DNA of 64,000 bases from Cystobasidiomycetes sp. EMM_F5 (Eukaryota). Of the stretch, positions 51,401-58,310 are shown in pieces. The notes under the pieces were generated by a model. The model saw only the letters and a list, made by a program, of their open reading frames with translations, searched no databases and was not told where the DNA came from. The stretch spans positions 62,001 to 126,000 of the forward strand of contig JBPGPT010000016.1 of assembly GCA_051047955.1 (NCBI GenBank), in the 5' to 3' direction. Position 1 is the first letter of the stretch. Each line of letters opens with the position of its first letter. The translations under genes and the position numbers were made by a program.

Positions 51401-53711
51401 AGCATATCTCAGTAGCGCAAAGGGATGGATTACAGTTCCGTTGGTTATTGCAAGCAGTGTCCTCATGCAAGGTGGGTTCATCAATGCCGCACGAGATACA
51501 AGTACACTGAGCTGCTCTCACAGGCGCTCAAGTGATGTCCGCTCTGTGGTTGACATACTGGGAGAATGATGATTTTTCGAAACCTCTTGGCTTTTACGTA
51601 CGTCGTTTACCTTCTCTCCGCACTCTAGAATATACGGCTGATAGCAATGGTCAGATGGGCATTTACGCCACTGTTGGGTCGGTACTTCCACGTCTACGAC
51701 GCCCAAAACATTTCGTTGACCGTCGTTATAGTGTACTCCAAGCCGTCTTTACATTCACGATGGGTGCATACATTGCGCTTCTAACATATTTTGCTTCCGC
51801 TGGCATGCATCATAAGGCTATACAAAGGATTTTCTTCGCTGTGCGCTCAATATTAAGCTTGCTGTTTGCGCTTTACTGATCGATTCGCTTCATCAGCCAA
51901 TGTCATTCTTCCATACCACTCCGCTTGGACGAATACTCGGTGTTTTCGGCAAGGACATAGACGTTTTGGACTCTCTCTTGGCTGATAGCTTACGGAGTAA
52001 GGCGAAAGTCGGTCCCTGTAATGGCTATGCTAACTCAGTCGTCCTCCTGCAGTGGCTACGATGATATTTGGCAACGTGATCTCGTCGGTCATTATCGTAG
52101 CATATTTCTTCCCCTATTTTTTGATTGCTATGGTTGTGGTGATCTTCGGAGTGAGCAACAGCTGATTAATTGGTTACGAACAGACTGACCTTTTCTGCAG
52201 TATGCGCATTTCTGGCTATACTATCGTGCGTCATCAAGAGAACTGAAGCGCTTGGATTCCATGCTTCGAGGCCTTCTATACGGCCACTTCAGCGAGTCTT
52301 TATCTGGTCTAGCAACAATTCGCGCATATGACAAAGAAGAATACTTCAAGCGCAACAACGCAAAGTTCGTGGATCTCGAAGATAGAGCCTATCTCCTGAC
52401 TACAGTCAATCAGCGATGGCTGTCCATTCGAATCGATGCGATGGGCTCCTTGATGACGCTGGCAGTGGCTATTATGGCTGCTGTGGGCATCAACGGTATC
52501 TCAGCTGCGCAGGTCGGATTGGTCTTGACATTCACCGTGACGATGACGCAATCATTTGGCATGGTTACGCGCCAGACTGCCGAAGTGGAGAACAACATGA
52601 ACGCTACGGAAAGAATACAATCATACAGCTCAGATAGACTGCCTCAGGAAGCGGCGCATTCTGTGCCTGATAGGGAGCCTGCACAAGATTGGCCGTCAGC
52701 TGGGGAGATCGTTCTAGACAAGGTCACTATGGCCTACCGGCCAGAACTGCCACCGGTCCTGAAGCAAATGTGAATATTGAATTAGCTGCAATGGTGGTAT
52801 GGCGTTAGCTGAGCTCATCAGCACAGATCGGCTCGCATACTGCCGCACGAAAAAATTGGCATTGTTGGGCGTACTGGAGCTGGCAAAAGTGTAGGTGTAC
52901 AGCAGTATCGACAGCGCACTCTGGCTGACGGCATGTGTCTGTAGTCGATTATGCAAGCTCTTTTTCGTATGGTCGAATTGTCCTCGGGTCAGATCGTCAT
53001 CGACGGCGTGGACATCGCTAAGATCGGGCTTGATACGCTCCGATCGCGTATGGCCATCATTCCGCAGGAACCGCAACTATTTAGCGGTACCATTCGGTCA
53101 AATTTGGACCCCTTCTCGCAATACGATGACGCTCGCTTACACGATGCGATGAAGAGAGCATACTTGCTGGACGACACTAGCTCTGTCGACCACTCGGATG
53201 AGGACCTATCCAGCCCCGAACGCGACTCCACGGAGGTTCGGCAGCGATTCACACTGGAGACTGAAATTGACGATGGCGGCGAAAACCTGTCCGTCGGGGA
53301 ACGCAGTCTCGTCAGTTTGGCGCGTGCGCTCGTCAAAGATAGCCAAATCATAGTGCTCGATGAATGCACAGCTAGTGTCGATCTGGAGACGGATGCTAAG
53401 ATCCAGCAAACGATCGGTCGAGAGTTCGCTGACAAGACTTTGCTTTGCATAGGTAAGTTTTGCTGGTTCTCGAGTCTGTGTAGCACTTGCTGAACAGGTA
53501 TACAGCACATCGACTCCGGACAATCATAGGCTATACACGCATCATGGTACTTGAAACCGGGGAGATAGTTGAATTCGGAACCCCCCTCGATTTGTTCCGC
53601 AAAGAGGGCATATTCAAGTCGCTGTGCGAGCAGTCAGCCATCGAAGAAGCGGACATTCTCAAAGCACAGCATCAGTCAGCTTCTCACGCTTTAACTGTTG
53701 GCTCAAAATAG
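48454..53711 (+). CDS. ABCC/MRP-family ABC transporter, Yor1-like (many exons)
   Basis: NBD1: [27 protein letters not shown]2: [28 protein letters not shown]. Two TMDs and no TMD0. Confidence 0.95.
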
Positions 53712-53860: not shown

Positions 53861-56598
53861 CTAACTCGCTATGCGAGCCGCCTCTCTTCGCCACACGAGG
53901 ACTTCGTAGTCGTCCTTGATATTCACTTCGGAGCCGCCGTAGGGTATCCGCGCACCCAGCGTATTGGGGCCAGTGTAGCCTGGCGTGCGTACGCCTTCAT
54001 GCCAGGCGCAAGCAAAGTACAACGGAGTGCGACCGTCGCGCTCAATGCCCGCTTGTACCGGCGCTATTAATCACAATGCGGTTAGCTAGATGACGCCGTC
54101 CGCTCGGTAGAGACGCAACATACTCTCAGTGGGTGGCATAGTACTGTTAGATGCCCGCACCCATTTGTGTATCGCAGGGTTCTCGAGGAATGTTTCATAC
54201 TTGTCATCCTTCGTCAGTGTGTACTCTGAGCCTTCCCAAGCCACTCGAACGGGGCCCTTCAGTGTCGGGCACAGCTTGGCAGGAATTTGCGCTCCGGAAG
54301 CGTGGTGATAGATTGCCAGAAAAACTGCGTGTCCATCATGGTCCCGAGTCGAGGCAATCGAGGAAGGATATTTTGGCTGCTGATCTCCCCTCAAGATCTG
54401 ACGGTCCGTGAAACTCTCTACGCTGGGTAGTGGCTGAAGAGGCTGCGGCATCGGAGGTGGCTTCTCTGGCGGGTCTGCCGTGATTTCGTTGAACTTGTCG
54501 CCGATATCGGAAAAGCCCTTTTTGATTGACGAGAAGAAGCCACCGCCAGATGAAGCAGGTGCAGGCGCGGCGCGGGAGGGCTGAGTTTGTCGAAGTGACT
54601 GTGGACTACTGTTGTTTGCGGAAGCGCTTAAAGGAGCAGGTTGATGATATAACGATCCAGGGACCGGCGGAGTCCGTTGTAGCTCGGCATTATACCAGTC
54701 TCGCGCATACGACTCTGCCACATCTTTCGAGCAGATGATACACACCCAATCTGTGGGACGGATTCGACTCCGCATATGTCTGCCAGGAACACCCTGCCAC
54801 GGTGCACGAAGCAGACCCTGCTCTTCCGCGCCCACTACCACAGGTTGGGGAGAGTTGCGGACACCGTACGCCACGACAGCGTGGTAAAAGTCGTTCAGAT
54901 TCATGTTCTTCTGCTTTTGCAACCATACATCGAATGCACGTATCCTGTCCGTGTCACCGTTGAAAAGCGCAGGCATGAAGGTTCCGATGGAGTCGTAATC
55001 CGCGCCAACTCCAAAGAAGTTGTTAAATGTTGACGTCAGAAGTCCTTGACGCGGGGGCATGGTATAGGCGTCCAGACGCTTGAACTCTCTAGCCTTGTTT
55101 TCTGCATACGCATCAATATATCAGTAAAGCTATTCATGGTCGGATTGCAGCTGATGACACTGACGACGTATCGGACCACAATAGCCTAGCAAATTTGTGC
55201 AAAAGTGTTCGGAGCATATGGCGCAAGTATCTTGGGGATATTCTCGTCGGTCTCGTATGGGTATCAGGTTTGGCCTCCTACAATTGAAGCACTGGGTATG
55301 GTCTCTTGGCATATTTGCCGGAGTACGCGGTATAGGCGGAGGAGCATTCGCTCCCGTTGGCCCAGTAAAGCTGAATGAGTACATGAGTCGCGGGTCTGGG
55401 ATTGGGTGCTGGCAGAGGTAACCGTATGGATTGCCAGGCTGACATGTTGGACATGGAAAATAGTAGCGCAGTAGGAGATTCAGTTCATCAATTGGGTTGA
55501 GGAGGACCATCGGCCTCATTGGGAAAGCTTGTCGGCCGCCCAGCATCGCTGCCTGCTGAGCTTGAGTGGCTTGGACCATCTGCCCATCGTTTCCTCCGTC
55601 CTGCTGCCCCCGATCATCGCGCGCGGACGATCCAGCAGCTTGCACAAGATCAATAGTAGCACCGGGATGGTAGATTCTCTGCATCTCTTCCTTCTCGTCA
55701 GCTGTTCGATCCTGACTCGGATCCATCCGGATGAGCACGTCACGCAGGGAATTGTGCTGGTGAGAGTCCTTTGTCGCCCGAGCGGGAGATCGACAAGTTG
55801 GACATTCTGGAGCACTTCGGTGATTTGACACCCATTGTATCAGGCAGGATCCGCAAAAGGTGTGGAGACAGTCGAGGACTGTTTGTGCGTGGTACAGCGA
55901 AAGCGAAAAGTGAAGTTGTGGAAGGAGTAAGAGCGGAGGAATGCGTAACGAGGGAGCAGTCATTCAGTATAATCCAGAAACTAATCGAACTGCTAAACTG
56001 ACCTGAGACTGGTTGAAACACAATTTCGCGACAGATGGCTGCAAAAACGTGGCGACTAGTCAGTTTGCCTTTGTTACATACATCTTATGCACATCTGGAC
56101 GCTAATTCTCCACCATATGGCAAACTCACAGCACTCGAGCTGTTCCGACAAGCTCTTTACAAGGTCATTCGGTGTCGATGATGCAGCTGGATTTGGAGCT
56201 GATATGGTCGCTCCGGTACTCAATGTAGCAGCAAGTGCTTCTACCTGCGTATTCGAAACCGATGGCAATGTCTGGCAATGATGGATACTTCCATCAGCTA
56301 ATGACGCACTTTCGCCGTGACTTCCGCGGGGGTGTCGAATACTCACTGAGTTGGCAGCCTGCACACTGTTGATGGACTGCCTTGAAGCTGCCCCAGCCTG
56401 CGCCTCATCGCCGTCACTTTCGTCTTCCACATCATCCCGGCCAGACTGGGTTGACGCGGGACCGGTTGGCGATAGCGGCACTTCACCTCGCAGTCGTGCG
56501 GCGGCGGCTGCTGCTGCTCTCTCTGCTCTTATCCGCTGCTCGTTAGGCTGCCCAGAACTACTTGAGCTCGCTTGCGCGACACCGTCGTCGACTCCCAT
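53861..56598 (-). CDS. CHFR-like C3HC4 RING E3 ligase with a Cys-rich domain, fused to C-terminal DM9 (DUF3421) repeats (5 exons)
   Basis: Spliced RING LECSICREIVFQPVSVLDCLHTFCGSC...CPTCR. Cys-rich region CPTC..C..QCFNC..CAICSEHFC..C..VCIIC. DM9 repeat WVRASNSTMP..PVQAGIERDGRTPLYF..PGYTG..ARIPYGGSEV..YEVLVW. Confidence 0.8.
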
Positions 56599-57047
56599 GG
56601 TGTAAATCGTAATGAGCTTAGCCTCTATTGACGAGACTGCTTCCAGGTGTTGTGCGATATTTGGTGGACTGTTGGTCGTATGTCGTAATGAATCGCAGGC
56701 CGAATCTACAGAAGTCGGTGTTGCAACGAAGGGGAGCAACGTCGTCACTTTAGCGATGCCTTGGCGGAAAGAGCGACAACTTTACAATCAGATTGTAATG
56801 CTTTATACGGGGCAGGCAGCCCTCGGACACAGACATGTGTCACGCTAATAAAGCCATCCACTCAGCGCTGTTTGCTGCTGTTTGCAATGTTCCAGTGTTC
56901 ATTCGGCACATGCATGCGGTTGCCGTGTGGCGACATACCCCGGATGATGCGATCTGCAAGACAGCGCTGAGACTCTTTGGATCTAAACCAAAATACCTGA
57001 AGCAAAATATACAATAAACACATCAAACCACAAAAGCCATCGCAGAC

Positions 57048-58310
57048 ATGGCCTGGCCAGAGATCAAGTGGGCATGGTTTGCGAGTCGCAGCTCAGCTCT
57101 TCGCTGACACCAACTTCCCGCAATCAGACTCAACACCGGTGCAAAGATCCCGTCGATAGGTTTTGGTTCGGCCGGCGTATGTCTACGTGTCCATACTCCA
57201 TCATCTGACCACTTTCTGATGCTCGTTAGGTACCTGGAAGATACCTCAAGAGAACACTGTACAGAATGTCATCTCGGCCTTCTCCGCTGGCTTTGTGCAC
57301 ATTGACACGGCGCAGGCGTACGGCAATGAAGAGCAAGTCGGACAGGCTCTCAAGCAGGCTTCCCTTCACGCCGAGAAACACGGTCATCCGCACCCTCAAG
57401 TATGGGTAACAACCAAATACTCTGGCAGACCATGGGGAAATGGCCAGTCTATTGATCCCTTGACCAGCGTCAAGCAGTCTCTGCAGAAACTCGGCGTACA
57501 CGCTCTCGATTTATACCTCGTCCACACGCCTCGCCTTTTTGCCGAGACTGGCATTGCCGAAGGATGGAAGCACATTGAGGATCTCCAGAAGCATGGCTAT
57601 ACCAAGAGCATTGGAGTTAGCAACTTTACTCTTGACGACATGCGAGAACTGCTCGAGGGCAAGCGATCTGCTGATGTGCAAGAAAAGTACACTGACAATG
57701 GCTATGACATCGAAAAGAAGGGACATCACCACCACAGTGGTCCGCACATCGTACCTTCAGTCAATCAGATTGAACTCCACCCATACGTGTGGGCAAAGTA
57801 CAAGGAGAATGTCGAGTACTGCCAGTCCAAGGGTGTCGTTATCGAAGCCTACTCTCCGCTAAAGCCCCTTACAAGCTACCCCGGTGGTCCAGTCGATGCT
57901 CCGGTCAATTCGATCGCAGAAAAGCTGGGTGTCAAGCCAGAGCAAGTCCTGCTCGCCTGGATCAAGAGCAAGGGAGCCGTCGCCTTGACGTGAGCGAACT
58001 TAGCATTTTTCATTAAGCCCTATTTGAATTATGGCTCATTGTGACTTGCTCTTGATAACAACACAGTACCTCGAGATCGCCAGAGCGCCTCGAAGCTTAC
58101 ATCTCAGCAGGCTCCATCGAGCTAGACGAGAACGATGTTCGAGCGATCGAAGAGGCTGGAGCACAGGGACCACCCGGGTCTATTACGACCATCAAGAAAT
58201 TGCGACTCTCGACGACCACAAAAGCTGTGATTTTACTGTTATGGTTTTTGGCAGGCGTCTTCTGGTGGTCAGGCGTGCAATTGTTCCTCAGCTCCCTGTG
58301 CGGAAAGTGA
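57048..58310 (+). CDS. Aldo-keto reductase with a hydrophobic C-terminal tail (4 exons)
   Basis: LNTGAKIPSIGFGTW, HIDTAQAYGNE, WVTTK, LDLYLVHTP, SIGVSNF, VNQIELHP. The catalytic D/Y/K/H residues are present. Confidence 0.93.

Follow-up and report, generated by a model that had tools for sequence, protein, structure and literature searches.

The gene described here lies in a 64,000-nt stretch of contig JBPGPT010000016.1 (GenBank assembly GCA_051047955.1, positions 62,001 to 126,000 of the forward strand), which is called the window below and is numbered from its first letter. The source organism, Cystobasidiomycetes sp. EMM_F5, is a phyllosphere yeast isolate from Magnolia grandiflora that was placed in the family Microsporomycetaceae (PMC12697161), and the window has a G+C content of 50-55%. 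On the minus strand from 56781 to 53861 we saw four long stop-to-stop frames (56074-56781, 55130-55963, 54086-55120, and 53861-54070) that are linked by four canonical GT..AG introns (GTGAGT..CAG, 91 nt; GTCAGT..CAG, 124 nt; GTCAGT..CAG, 63 nt; and GTATGT..TAG, 60 nt). In our splice model this region is a single gene of five exons (53861-56598) with a 2400-nt coding sequence for a 799-residue protein, in which a RING finger and a DM9 domain stand on one polypeptide; we designated it the RING-DM9 protein. Its parts run in the order disordered N-terminus, RING, post-RING segment, Cys-rich region, Pro-rich linker, and two-repeat DM9. The exons, followed by the protein features (residue numbers are those of our model), are:

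56130..56598, minus strand: exon 1, with the ATG at 56598-56596, an Ala/Ser-rich disordered N-terminus of ~150 residues, and the first RING Cys
56003..56038, minus strand: exon 2 (36 nt), which finishes the first RING Cys pair (C-S-I-C) and adds the next residues
55165..55878, minus strand: exon 3, which continues from the rest of the RING through the post-RING segment and a Gln-rich spacer into the Cys-rich region, of which it holds the first half
54124..55101, minus strand: exon 4, one open frame that holds the Cys-rich region's second half and also encodes the Pro-rich linker (amphipathic segment included) and DM9 repeat 1
53861..54063, minus strand: exon 5, with DM9 repeat 2 and the stop codon TAG at 53863-53861
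55787..56133, minus strand: C3HC4 RING finger (residues 156-199), spanning introns 1 and 2
55649..55786, minus strand: conserved post-RING segment (residues 200-245)
54677..55522, minus strand: Cys-rich region (residues 288-548), containing intron 3, with 12 invariant Cys and 1 invariant His
54476..54544, minus strand: amphipathic segment in the linker, with the motif GFFSS-x-KKG-[FI]-x-D
54164..54385, minus strand: DM9 repeat 1 (residues 646-719), Pfam DM9 30.6 bits
53891..54163, minus strand: DM9 repeat 2 (residues 720-790), containing intron 4 (54064-54123), Pfam DM9 30.6 bits

A first-pass annotation of the window had proposed that a RING ligase is fused here to a DM9 module and that the fusion does not depend on the splice model, and our analysis confirmed on both counts that the RING/Cys-rich/DM9 fusion is one real gene. 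The independence from splice prediction follows from single open reading frames that cross the parts, both in the window and in related database proteins. In exon 4, a single open frame of 978 nt encodes the last part of the Cys-rich region, including its invariant Cys pair, then the linker and DM9 repeat 1; the claim of one uninterrupted exon for the Cys-rich region's end and the first DM9 repeat therefore stood (54124-55101), with the correction that the open reading frame around it runs from 54086 to 55120 and does not end at 55060. Two relatives, P0002 and P0007, are single open reading frames that connect the post-RING segment, by way of the Cys-rich region, with DM9 repeat 1, the short intron being read in frame. 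A third, P0006, is a 545-residue open reading frame on a 1919-nt contig, and it spans the Cys-rich region and both DM9 repeats without a break; it is collinear with residues 278-794 of our model over both downstream junctions, thereby confirming the exon 4/exon 5 junction, and may derive from complementary DNA or from an intron-poor relative. A fourth, P0008, joins the N-terminus and RING to the first half of the Cys-rich region; since it begins at the equivalent position, it supports our start in exon 1. Exon 2 is bordered by the GTGAGT..CAG and GTCAGT..CAG introns. A sequencing run that we presume to be of RNA held a single 239-nt contig from this gene, inside exon 3 and crossing no splice joint.

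The counterpart of the gene at NCBI is KAL7006607.1 ("hypothetical protein EMMF5_003773"; P0004, 711 residues), which falls into the same 90% cluster as P0001, the entry identical to the exon 4 product over query residues 14-325; the exon 4 product has 65% identity to P0002. We could rebuild the NCBI model exactly from window coordinates, and it differed from ours at two places. First, it removes an in-frame 102-nt intron (56245-56346, GTGAGT..CAG) in the disordered N-terminus; this candidate intron is frame-neutral either way, giving a protein of 799 or 765 residues. Second, it uses a GTACTC donor at 55326, so that exon 3 ends at 55327, the intron becomes 225 nt long, and 54 residues are lost, all of which the GTCAGT donor at 55164 in our model retains in the Cys-rich region. 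Because four relatives (P0002, P0006, P0007, and P0008) conserve this 54-residue stretch, which includes 7 invariant Cys and 1 invariant His, we conclude from the alignment that KAL7006607.1 is wrong at the exon 3 donor site.

The RING that had been claimed for this locus is well supported. The spliced sequence has the zinc-ligand spacing C-x2-C-x12-C-x-H-x2-C-x2-C-x13-C-x2-C, all eight ligands being in place; Pfam zf-C3HC4 matched P0004 with 36.8 bits (E-value 3.5e-9) and the raw window pieces with an E-value of 5.8e-7; and many solved RINGs in the PDB were matched, down to an E-value of 6.5e-14. By its sequence the protein belongs to the RING-type (C3HC4) ubiquitin ligases (E3s) and is a predicted ligase. 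The post-RING segment, which may be CHFR-like, is kept in P0007 and P0008 and is separated from the Cys-rich region by the Gln-rich spacer.

At the other end of the protein, two DM9-like repeats had been placed behind a Pro-rich linker, and these were recovered at 54385-53891. The Pfam DM9 family (PF11901; cut-off 26.2 bits) matched P0004 with 61.7 bits (E-value 7.9e-17) over model positions 1-114 of 115 and P0006 with 67.3 bits, and even the raw window pieces scored 27.5 and 30.8 bits. A two-sequence profile matched PDB entry 5id8 (deposited as "Natterin-3", the oyster lectin CGL1/CgDM9CP-1) with a HMMER E-value of 1.8e-6, and in a language-model search all ten of the ten best family-bearing clusters belonged to the DM9 family or its clan, and the best three scored 0.91. 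These matches place the C-terminus in the DM9 domain family.

Between these two ends, the Cys-rich region had been called CHFR-like, and this description held in part. The match to Pfam zf-CRD (PF17979, the CHFR cysteine-rich domain; cut-off 26.3 bits) was partial, always covering model positions 17-78 of 158, and among the five sequences holding this part it lay above the cut-off in two (P0007, 28.0 bits; P0006, 26.8 bits) and below it in three (P0002, 20.3 bits; the window piece, 18.5 bits with an E-value of 0.0026; P0008, 16.8 bits). Set against this near-threshold similarity, neither single sequences nor a family profile matched any solved CHFR chain in the PDB at an E-value of 10 or less, a language-model search using the Cys-rich region returned nothing usable, and the second half of the region had no detectable relative outside the clade. 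Since the zf-CRD match is partial and no CHFR chain or language-model match accompanies it, we describe the first module of the region as resembling a CHFR-type zinc module and its second half as clade-specific. Past the last invariant Cys pair comes the Pro-rich linker, which has no further invariant Cys or His.

No FHA domain, PBZ motif, or signal peptide had been seen in the first-pass annotation, and all three absences held. On P0004 at an E-value of 0.1 or less, Pfam found no FHA domain, and the N-terminus of P0008 is similarly placed; at the same threshold there was no PBZ match on P0004 or P0006, nor any F-box, FBA, Nictaba, or jacalin family on either. The exon 1 piece matched zero Pfam families even at an E-value of 1 or less. 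A hydropathy scan of the RING-DM9 protein showed neither a signal peptide nor a membrane span, since the N-terminal part is hydrophilic and the 19-residue Kyte-Doolittle means peak at 1.32, inside the RING. From this lack of a hydrophobic window we infer a soluble protein, either cytosolic or nuclear. The suggestion that the targeting module of CHFR has been exchanged fits the absence of FHA and PBZ and the C-terminal position of the DM9 domain, and is weakened by the limitation of the zf-CRD match to positions 17-78 of 158 and by a second half of the Cys-rich region that has no detectable relative beyond the clade.

The linker is 97 residues long, is rich in Pro and Ser, and carries one conserved element, the amphipathic segment, in which GFFSS, KKG, and the following D are identical in 9/9 covering sequences. 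This segment is the protein's peak in 18-residue helical hydrophobic moment (0.61, compared with a mean of 0.22 and a standard deviation of 0.10) and is predicted helical with a local confidence score (pLDDT) of 60-67 in an AlphaFold2 model of P0006; it may be a membrane-binding helix. A similarity between this motif and the N-terminal part of rat synapsin I was not significant (E-values 1.1-2.3). The matched synapsin I stretch is presumably an ALPS (amphipathic lipid packing sensor) curvature sensor, although one paper puts the ALPS in domain B. As a separate candidate we considered the N-terminal Met-Gly of the protein as a myristoylation site and rejected it, the sole other N-terminus at hand (P0008) having no Gly2.

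The RING-DM9 architecture is rare and lineage-restricted, yet conserved. When exon 4 was searched with HMMER against 1.84 billion representative proteins, three matches had an E-value of 0.001 or less (itself, one 65%-identical cluster, and one fragment), and a word-based search for longer exon 4 homologs found none. With P0004 as query, a word-based search identified 17 proteins, of which four (P0002, P0006, P0007, and P0008) belong to the family; the other 13 were ascomycete and unnamed proteins with 12-20% of the query covered and no DM9 or zf-CRD listed. The Cys-rich region of P0006 identified nine proteins, all of the RING-DM9 family, and among JGI metagenome contigs 592 pattern matches yielded zero confirmed relatives. 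By 90% clusters the family comprises P0001/P0004, P0002, P0003, P0006, P0007, P0008, and P0022-P0025, with identities of 50-76%, and forms a small clade of yeast-like relatives; these are ~10 sequences, perhaps from fewer species, as partial open reading frames may share one organism. The proposed architecture (RING, CHFR-type Cys-rich region, Pro-rich linker, and two DM9 repeats) is therefore real and conserved in ~10 related sequences. The protein was undescribed in the full-text literature we searched, in agreement with the earlier impression of novelty, and had no other match among the 1.84 billion representatives (InterPro and CDART lay outside this scope).

Two neighbors flank the gene. 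The C-terminal nucleotide-binding domain of an ABC transporter (52945-53493, plus strand; Pfam ABC_tran, E-value 6.2e-17) converges on its 3' end, and an aldo/keto reductase gene (57220-57993, plus strand; Pfam Aldo_ket_red, E-value 7.5e-36) is divergent from it, ~500-600 nt from the RING-DM9 start codon.

Since mannose binding by CGL1 is known in structural detail, we compared its two sites with the DM9 domain of the RING-DM9 protein. In site A of CGL1, Asp22, Lys43, Glu59, and the main-chain nitrogen of Ala127 hold the mannose, with His52 and Phe126 stacking, and the weaker site B comprises Lys114, Glu130, Ala56, Phe55, and Tyr123 (PMC4932603). Mutation showed Asp22 and Lys43 to be critical, and both are described as conserved across the 477 DM9 proteins compared (PMC5712788). 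HMMER aligned repeat 2 to CGL1 residues 3-74, and repeat 1 was mapped by way of an hhalign alignment to repeat 2, which was weak (E-value 0.01, probability 4%) with a register as expected for DM9 repeats. The counterparts, with their conservation among the family sequences covering them, are:

CGL1 Asp22 (site A): Asp660, repeat 1, 9/9
CGL1 Lys43 (site A): Lys682, repeat 1, 9/9
CGL1 Glu59 (site A): Glu699, repeat 1, 9/9
CGL1 His52 (site A): Arg692, repeat 1
CGL1 Phe126 (site A): Tyr774, repeat 2, Phe or Tyr in 3/3
CGL1 Ala127 (site A): Gly775, repeat 2, 3/3
CGL1 Lys114 (site B): Tyr762, repeat 2, Tyr in 3/3
CGL1 Phe55 (site B): Trp695, repeat 1, 5 Trp, 1 Phe, and 3 Leu among 9

Glu778 is also retained in repeat 2. 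Because the Asp, Lys, and Glu of site A are invariant in 9/9 sequences and the Lys of site B is replaced by Tyr in 3/3, one CGL1-like pocket (site A) looks retained and the second (site B) looks lost. For a sugar-reading module as first proposed, the residue comparison was thus divided, with the site A counterparts present throughout and the site B Lys gone.

With these parts the fusion may aim ubiquitination at mannose-bearing targets, and we regard glycan-directed ubiquitination as plausible; the functional interpretation in the first-pass annotation is to this extent partly supported. In the most economical reading, a tentative one to which we give somewhat less than an even chance, the protein would be a single-polypeptide, sugar-recognizing E3 that ubiquitinates mannosylated proteins on the cytosolic side. 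The RING, judging from its family, would recruit ubiquitin-charged conjugating enzyme (E2~ubiquitin), and the DM9 domain, placed where CHFR has its PBZ, would be the targeting module, whose one pocket of the CGL1 site A type (Asp660, Lys682, and Glu699 together with Tyr774 of repeat 2) would bind terminal mannose or high-mannose glycans. The amphipathic segment of the linker may keep the protein at endomembranes, much as myristoylation does for Fbs3. Candidate substrates would be mannosylated proteins at the cytosolic face, such as retrotranslocated clients of endoplasmic-reticulum-associated degradation (ERAD) or the contents of ruptured vacuoles and endosomes, and the outcome would be a fungal, RING-type functional analog of the Skp1-cullin-F-box (SCF) ligases SCF-Fbs1/2/3. 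There is precedent for cytosolic lectin E3s in Fbs1-3 and the plant F-box/Nictaba proteins, Fbs3 being anchored to membranes through myristoylation (PMC6389600).

Several points weigh against this reading. The mapping of repeat 1 onto CGL1 is indirect, as HMMER aligned only repeat 2 and the hhalign step between the repeats was weak. The counterpart of His52 is Arg in both repeats, and with the Lys of site B replaced by Tyr and its aromatic residue variable, there is at most one intact-looking site per protein; CGL1, by comparison, gains avidity as a dimer with four sites (PMC4932603). The AlphaFold2 model of P0006, built from an 11-row alignment, was too poor for a view of the pocket (mean pLDDT 41.7, predicted template modeling score 0.42), and a Foldseek search with this low-confidence model gave no match at an E-value of 0.001 or less, the rows returned being of immunoglobulin type only and meaningless. 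CHFR binds target proteins through its Cys-rich domain (PMC3988518), and therefore substrate choice could sit in that region here, with DM9 having another role. Finally, the family is tiny and lineage-restricted, which would make a general quality-control role surprising.

In its fullest form, the reading of the protein as a sugar-recognizing E3 would make it the first single-chain RING-lectin ligase: a cytosolic surveillance enzyme of one yeast lineage, in which a mannose-binding DM9 domain has replaced the poly(ADP-ribose) reader of CHFR and an amphipathic segment sits on endomembranes, and which ubiquitinates high-mannose glycoproteins exposed to the cytosol through ERAD or through vacuole or endosome rupture, in convergence with mammalian SCF-Fbs. 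We consider this complete scenario unlikely as it stands. The architecture is solid and attractive in concept, and the family is tiny; the function is wholly inferred, from ligase activity and the binding of glycans to the proposed targets, whether ERAD clients, damaged vacuoles, or microbes.

Three other explanations deserve consideration. The strongest, which we rate as somewhat unlikely, is that the protein is a CHFR/Dma1-like checkpoint or signaling RING E3 whose Cys-rich region picks the substrates and whose DM9 domain is a protein-binding or self-association module, e.g., one that dimerizes the RING. The RING with a partial CHFR-type zf-CRD fits such a ligase, as does the use of the Cys-rich domain of CHFR for target binding (PMC3988518), and CGL1 dimerizes obligatorily by way of its DM9 fold (PMC4932603). 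The degenerate site B (Lys to Tyr in 3/3) and the change of His52 to Arg also speak for it, and several DM9 proteins act intracellularly, CgDM9CP-6 having been reported with 14-3-3 (PMC12379375). However, an Asp, Lys, and Glu of site A that stay invariant in 9/9 sequences at 50-75% overall identity would not be expected of a purely structural fold, and a protein that has no FHA domain would lack phospho-targeting in the manner of CHFR and Dma1.

We see a smaller chance that the ligase is gated by a metabolite, with the DM9 domain binding a free sugar or sugar nucleotide (mannose, mannose phosphate, guanosine diphosphate-mannose, or oligomannose released by peptide:N-glycanase), or else ADP-ribose or poly(ADP-ribose) in replacement of PBZ, and the ligand switching activity or localization. 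The sole intact-looking site would suit a small monovalent ligand, the domain takes the position of the poly(ADP-ribose)-binding zinc finger of CHFR, and CGL1 binds monomeric mannose with an association constant of ~2x10^3 per M (Table 1 of PMC4932603). This millimolar affinity would be poor for a metabolite sensor, though, no sequence feature speaks for allostery, and binding of nucleotides or ADP-ribose by DM9 is without precedent in the parts of PMC4932603 and PMC5712788 available to us.

That a gene prediction merged adjacent RING/Cys-rich and DM9 genes has next to no likelihood: the presumed RNA contig (239 nt, exon 3) crosses no splice joint, the public model errs at one splice site, and predictions based on open reading frames split the locus, with P0001 beginning at an internal Met, but the 978-nt frame of exon 4 holds both conserved Cys-rich residues (the invariant Cys pair among them) and DM9 repeat 1, one open reading frame in each of P0002 and P0007 connects the post-RING segment with that repeat, P0006 is contiguous over both downstream junctions, the linker motif is identical in all nine covering sequences, and the start codon lies only ~500 nt from the divergent upstream gene. 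What probability remains belongs to an explanation outside those considered.

If the RING-DM9 protein does recognize sugars, ligases of this kind would exist in fungi as well, built from wholly different parts (RING and DM9 on a single chain); the portion of PMC6389600 at hand describes lectin-guided ubiquitination only for mammalian and plant F-box adaptors. Such a protein would offer a compact model of the way cells sense lumenal glycans that are out of their proper compartment and would give a defined intracellular job to DM9, a module that is widespread yet poorly understood. Function aside, the locus is a clean case of targeting-domain exchange on what resembles a CHFR-like ligase scaffold, and a public gene model has been corrected.

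Among known systems, the FHA-RING E3s CHFR (animals) and Dma1 and Dma2 (yeasts) share with the RING-DM9 protein a C3HC4 RING, which is followed here by a conserved, putatively CHFR-like segment and then by a multi-Cys region whose first module partially matches zf-CRD, near the cut-off. CHFR consists of FHA, RING, and a Cys-rich domain that encloses a poly(ADP-ribose) reader (PMC3988518), whereas the protein described here has neither FHA nor PBZ and carries a C-terminal DM9 domain instead; because FHA and PBZ are absent, its sequence is not that of a CHFR/Dma1 member. CGL1 of Crassostrea gigas (PDB 5id8) likewise has two tandem DM9 repeats, and its site A residues Asp22, Lys43, and Glu59 and aromatic platform have counterparts here. 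Neither protein has a signal peptide, CGL1 being N-acetylated at Ala2 (PMC4932603). CGL1, however, is a free-standing 143-residue dimeric lectin with two sites per chain, whereas DM9 is here the C-terminal tail of a 799-residue RING protein in which the site B Lys is Tyr and His52 is Arg, and in which binding is predicted.

The likeness to Fbs1/FBXO2, Fbs2/FBXO6, Fbs3/FBXO27, and the plant F-box/Nictaba and F-box/jacalin proteins is one of concept only, a nucleocytoplasmic lectin module being combined with a ubiquitin-ligase function, to which may be added that the membrane anchor of Fbs3 (PMC6389600) is comparable to the putative one in our linker. Their lectin folds (FBA, Nictaba, or jacalin) are unrelated to DM9, they are adaptors of cullin-RING complexes whereas the RING-DM9 protein has its RING on the same polypeptide, and they are known from mammals and plants, with fungi unmentioned in the accessible part of PMC6389600. 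As a module of chimeric proteins DM9 is familiar from the pore-forming natterins and insect farnesoic acid O-methyltransferase (PMC5712788) and, within Basidiomycota, from an Agaricomycete CBM5/12 + DM9 protein (PMC10282164); the partners in these fusions include no RING or other domain of the ubiquitin system.

Outside the clade, the closest RING and post-RING module was found in ascomycete RING...SH3 proteins (P0009-P0021; hypothetical proteins from, e.g., Cladophialophora, Botrytis, Xylaria, and Claviceps). These are ~770-970 residues long, mostly from Ascomycota, and were matched in their RING part only. Two of them, P0009 and P0010, have 35-42% identity to the RING-DM9 protein over ~120-144 residues covering the RING and post-RING segment, but differ beyond it in having other Cys-rich stretches and a C-terminal SH3 domain, with no zf-CRD or DM9 at an E-value of 0.1 or less. 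Taken with the RING-DM9 family, they hint that fungi have a RING scaffold whose C-terminal targeting modules can be exchanged.

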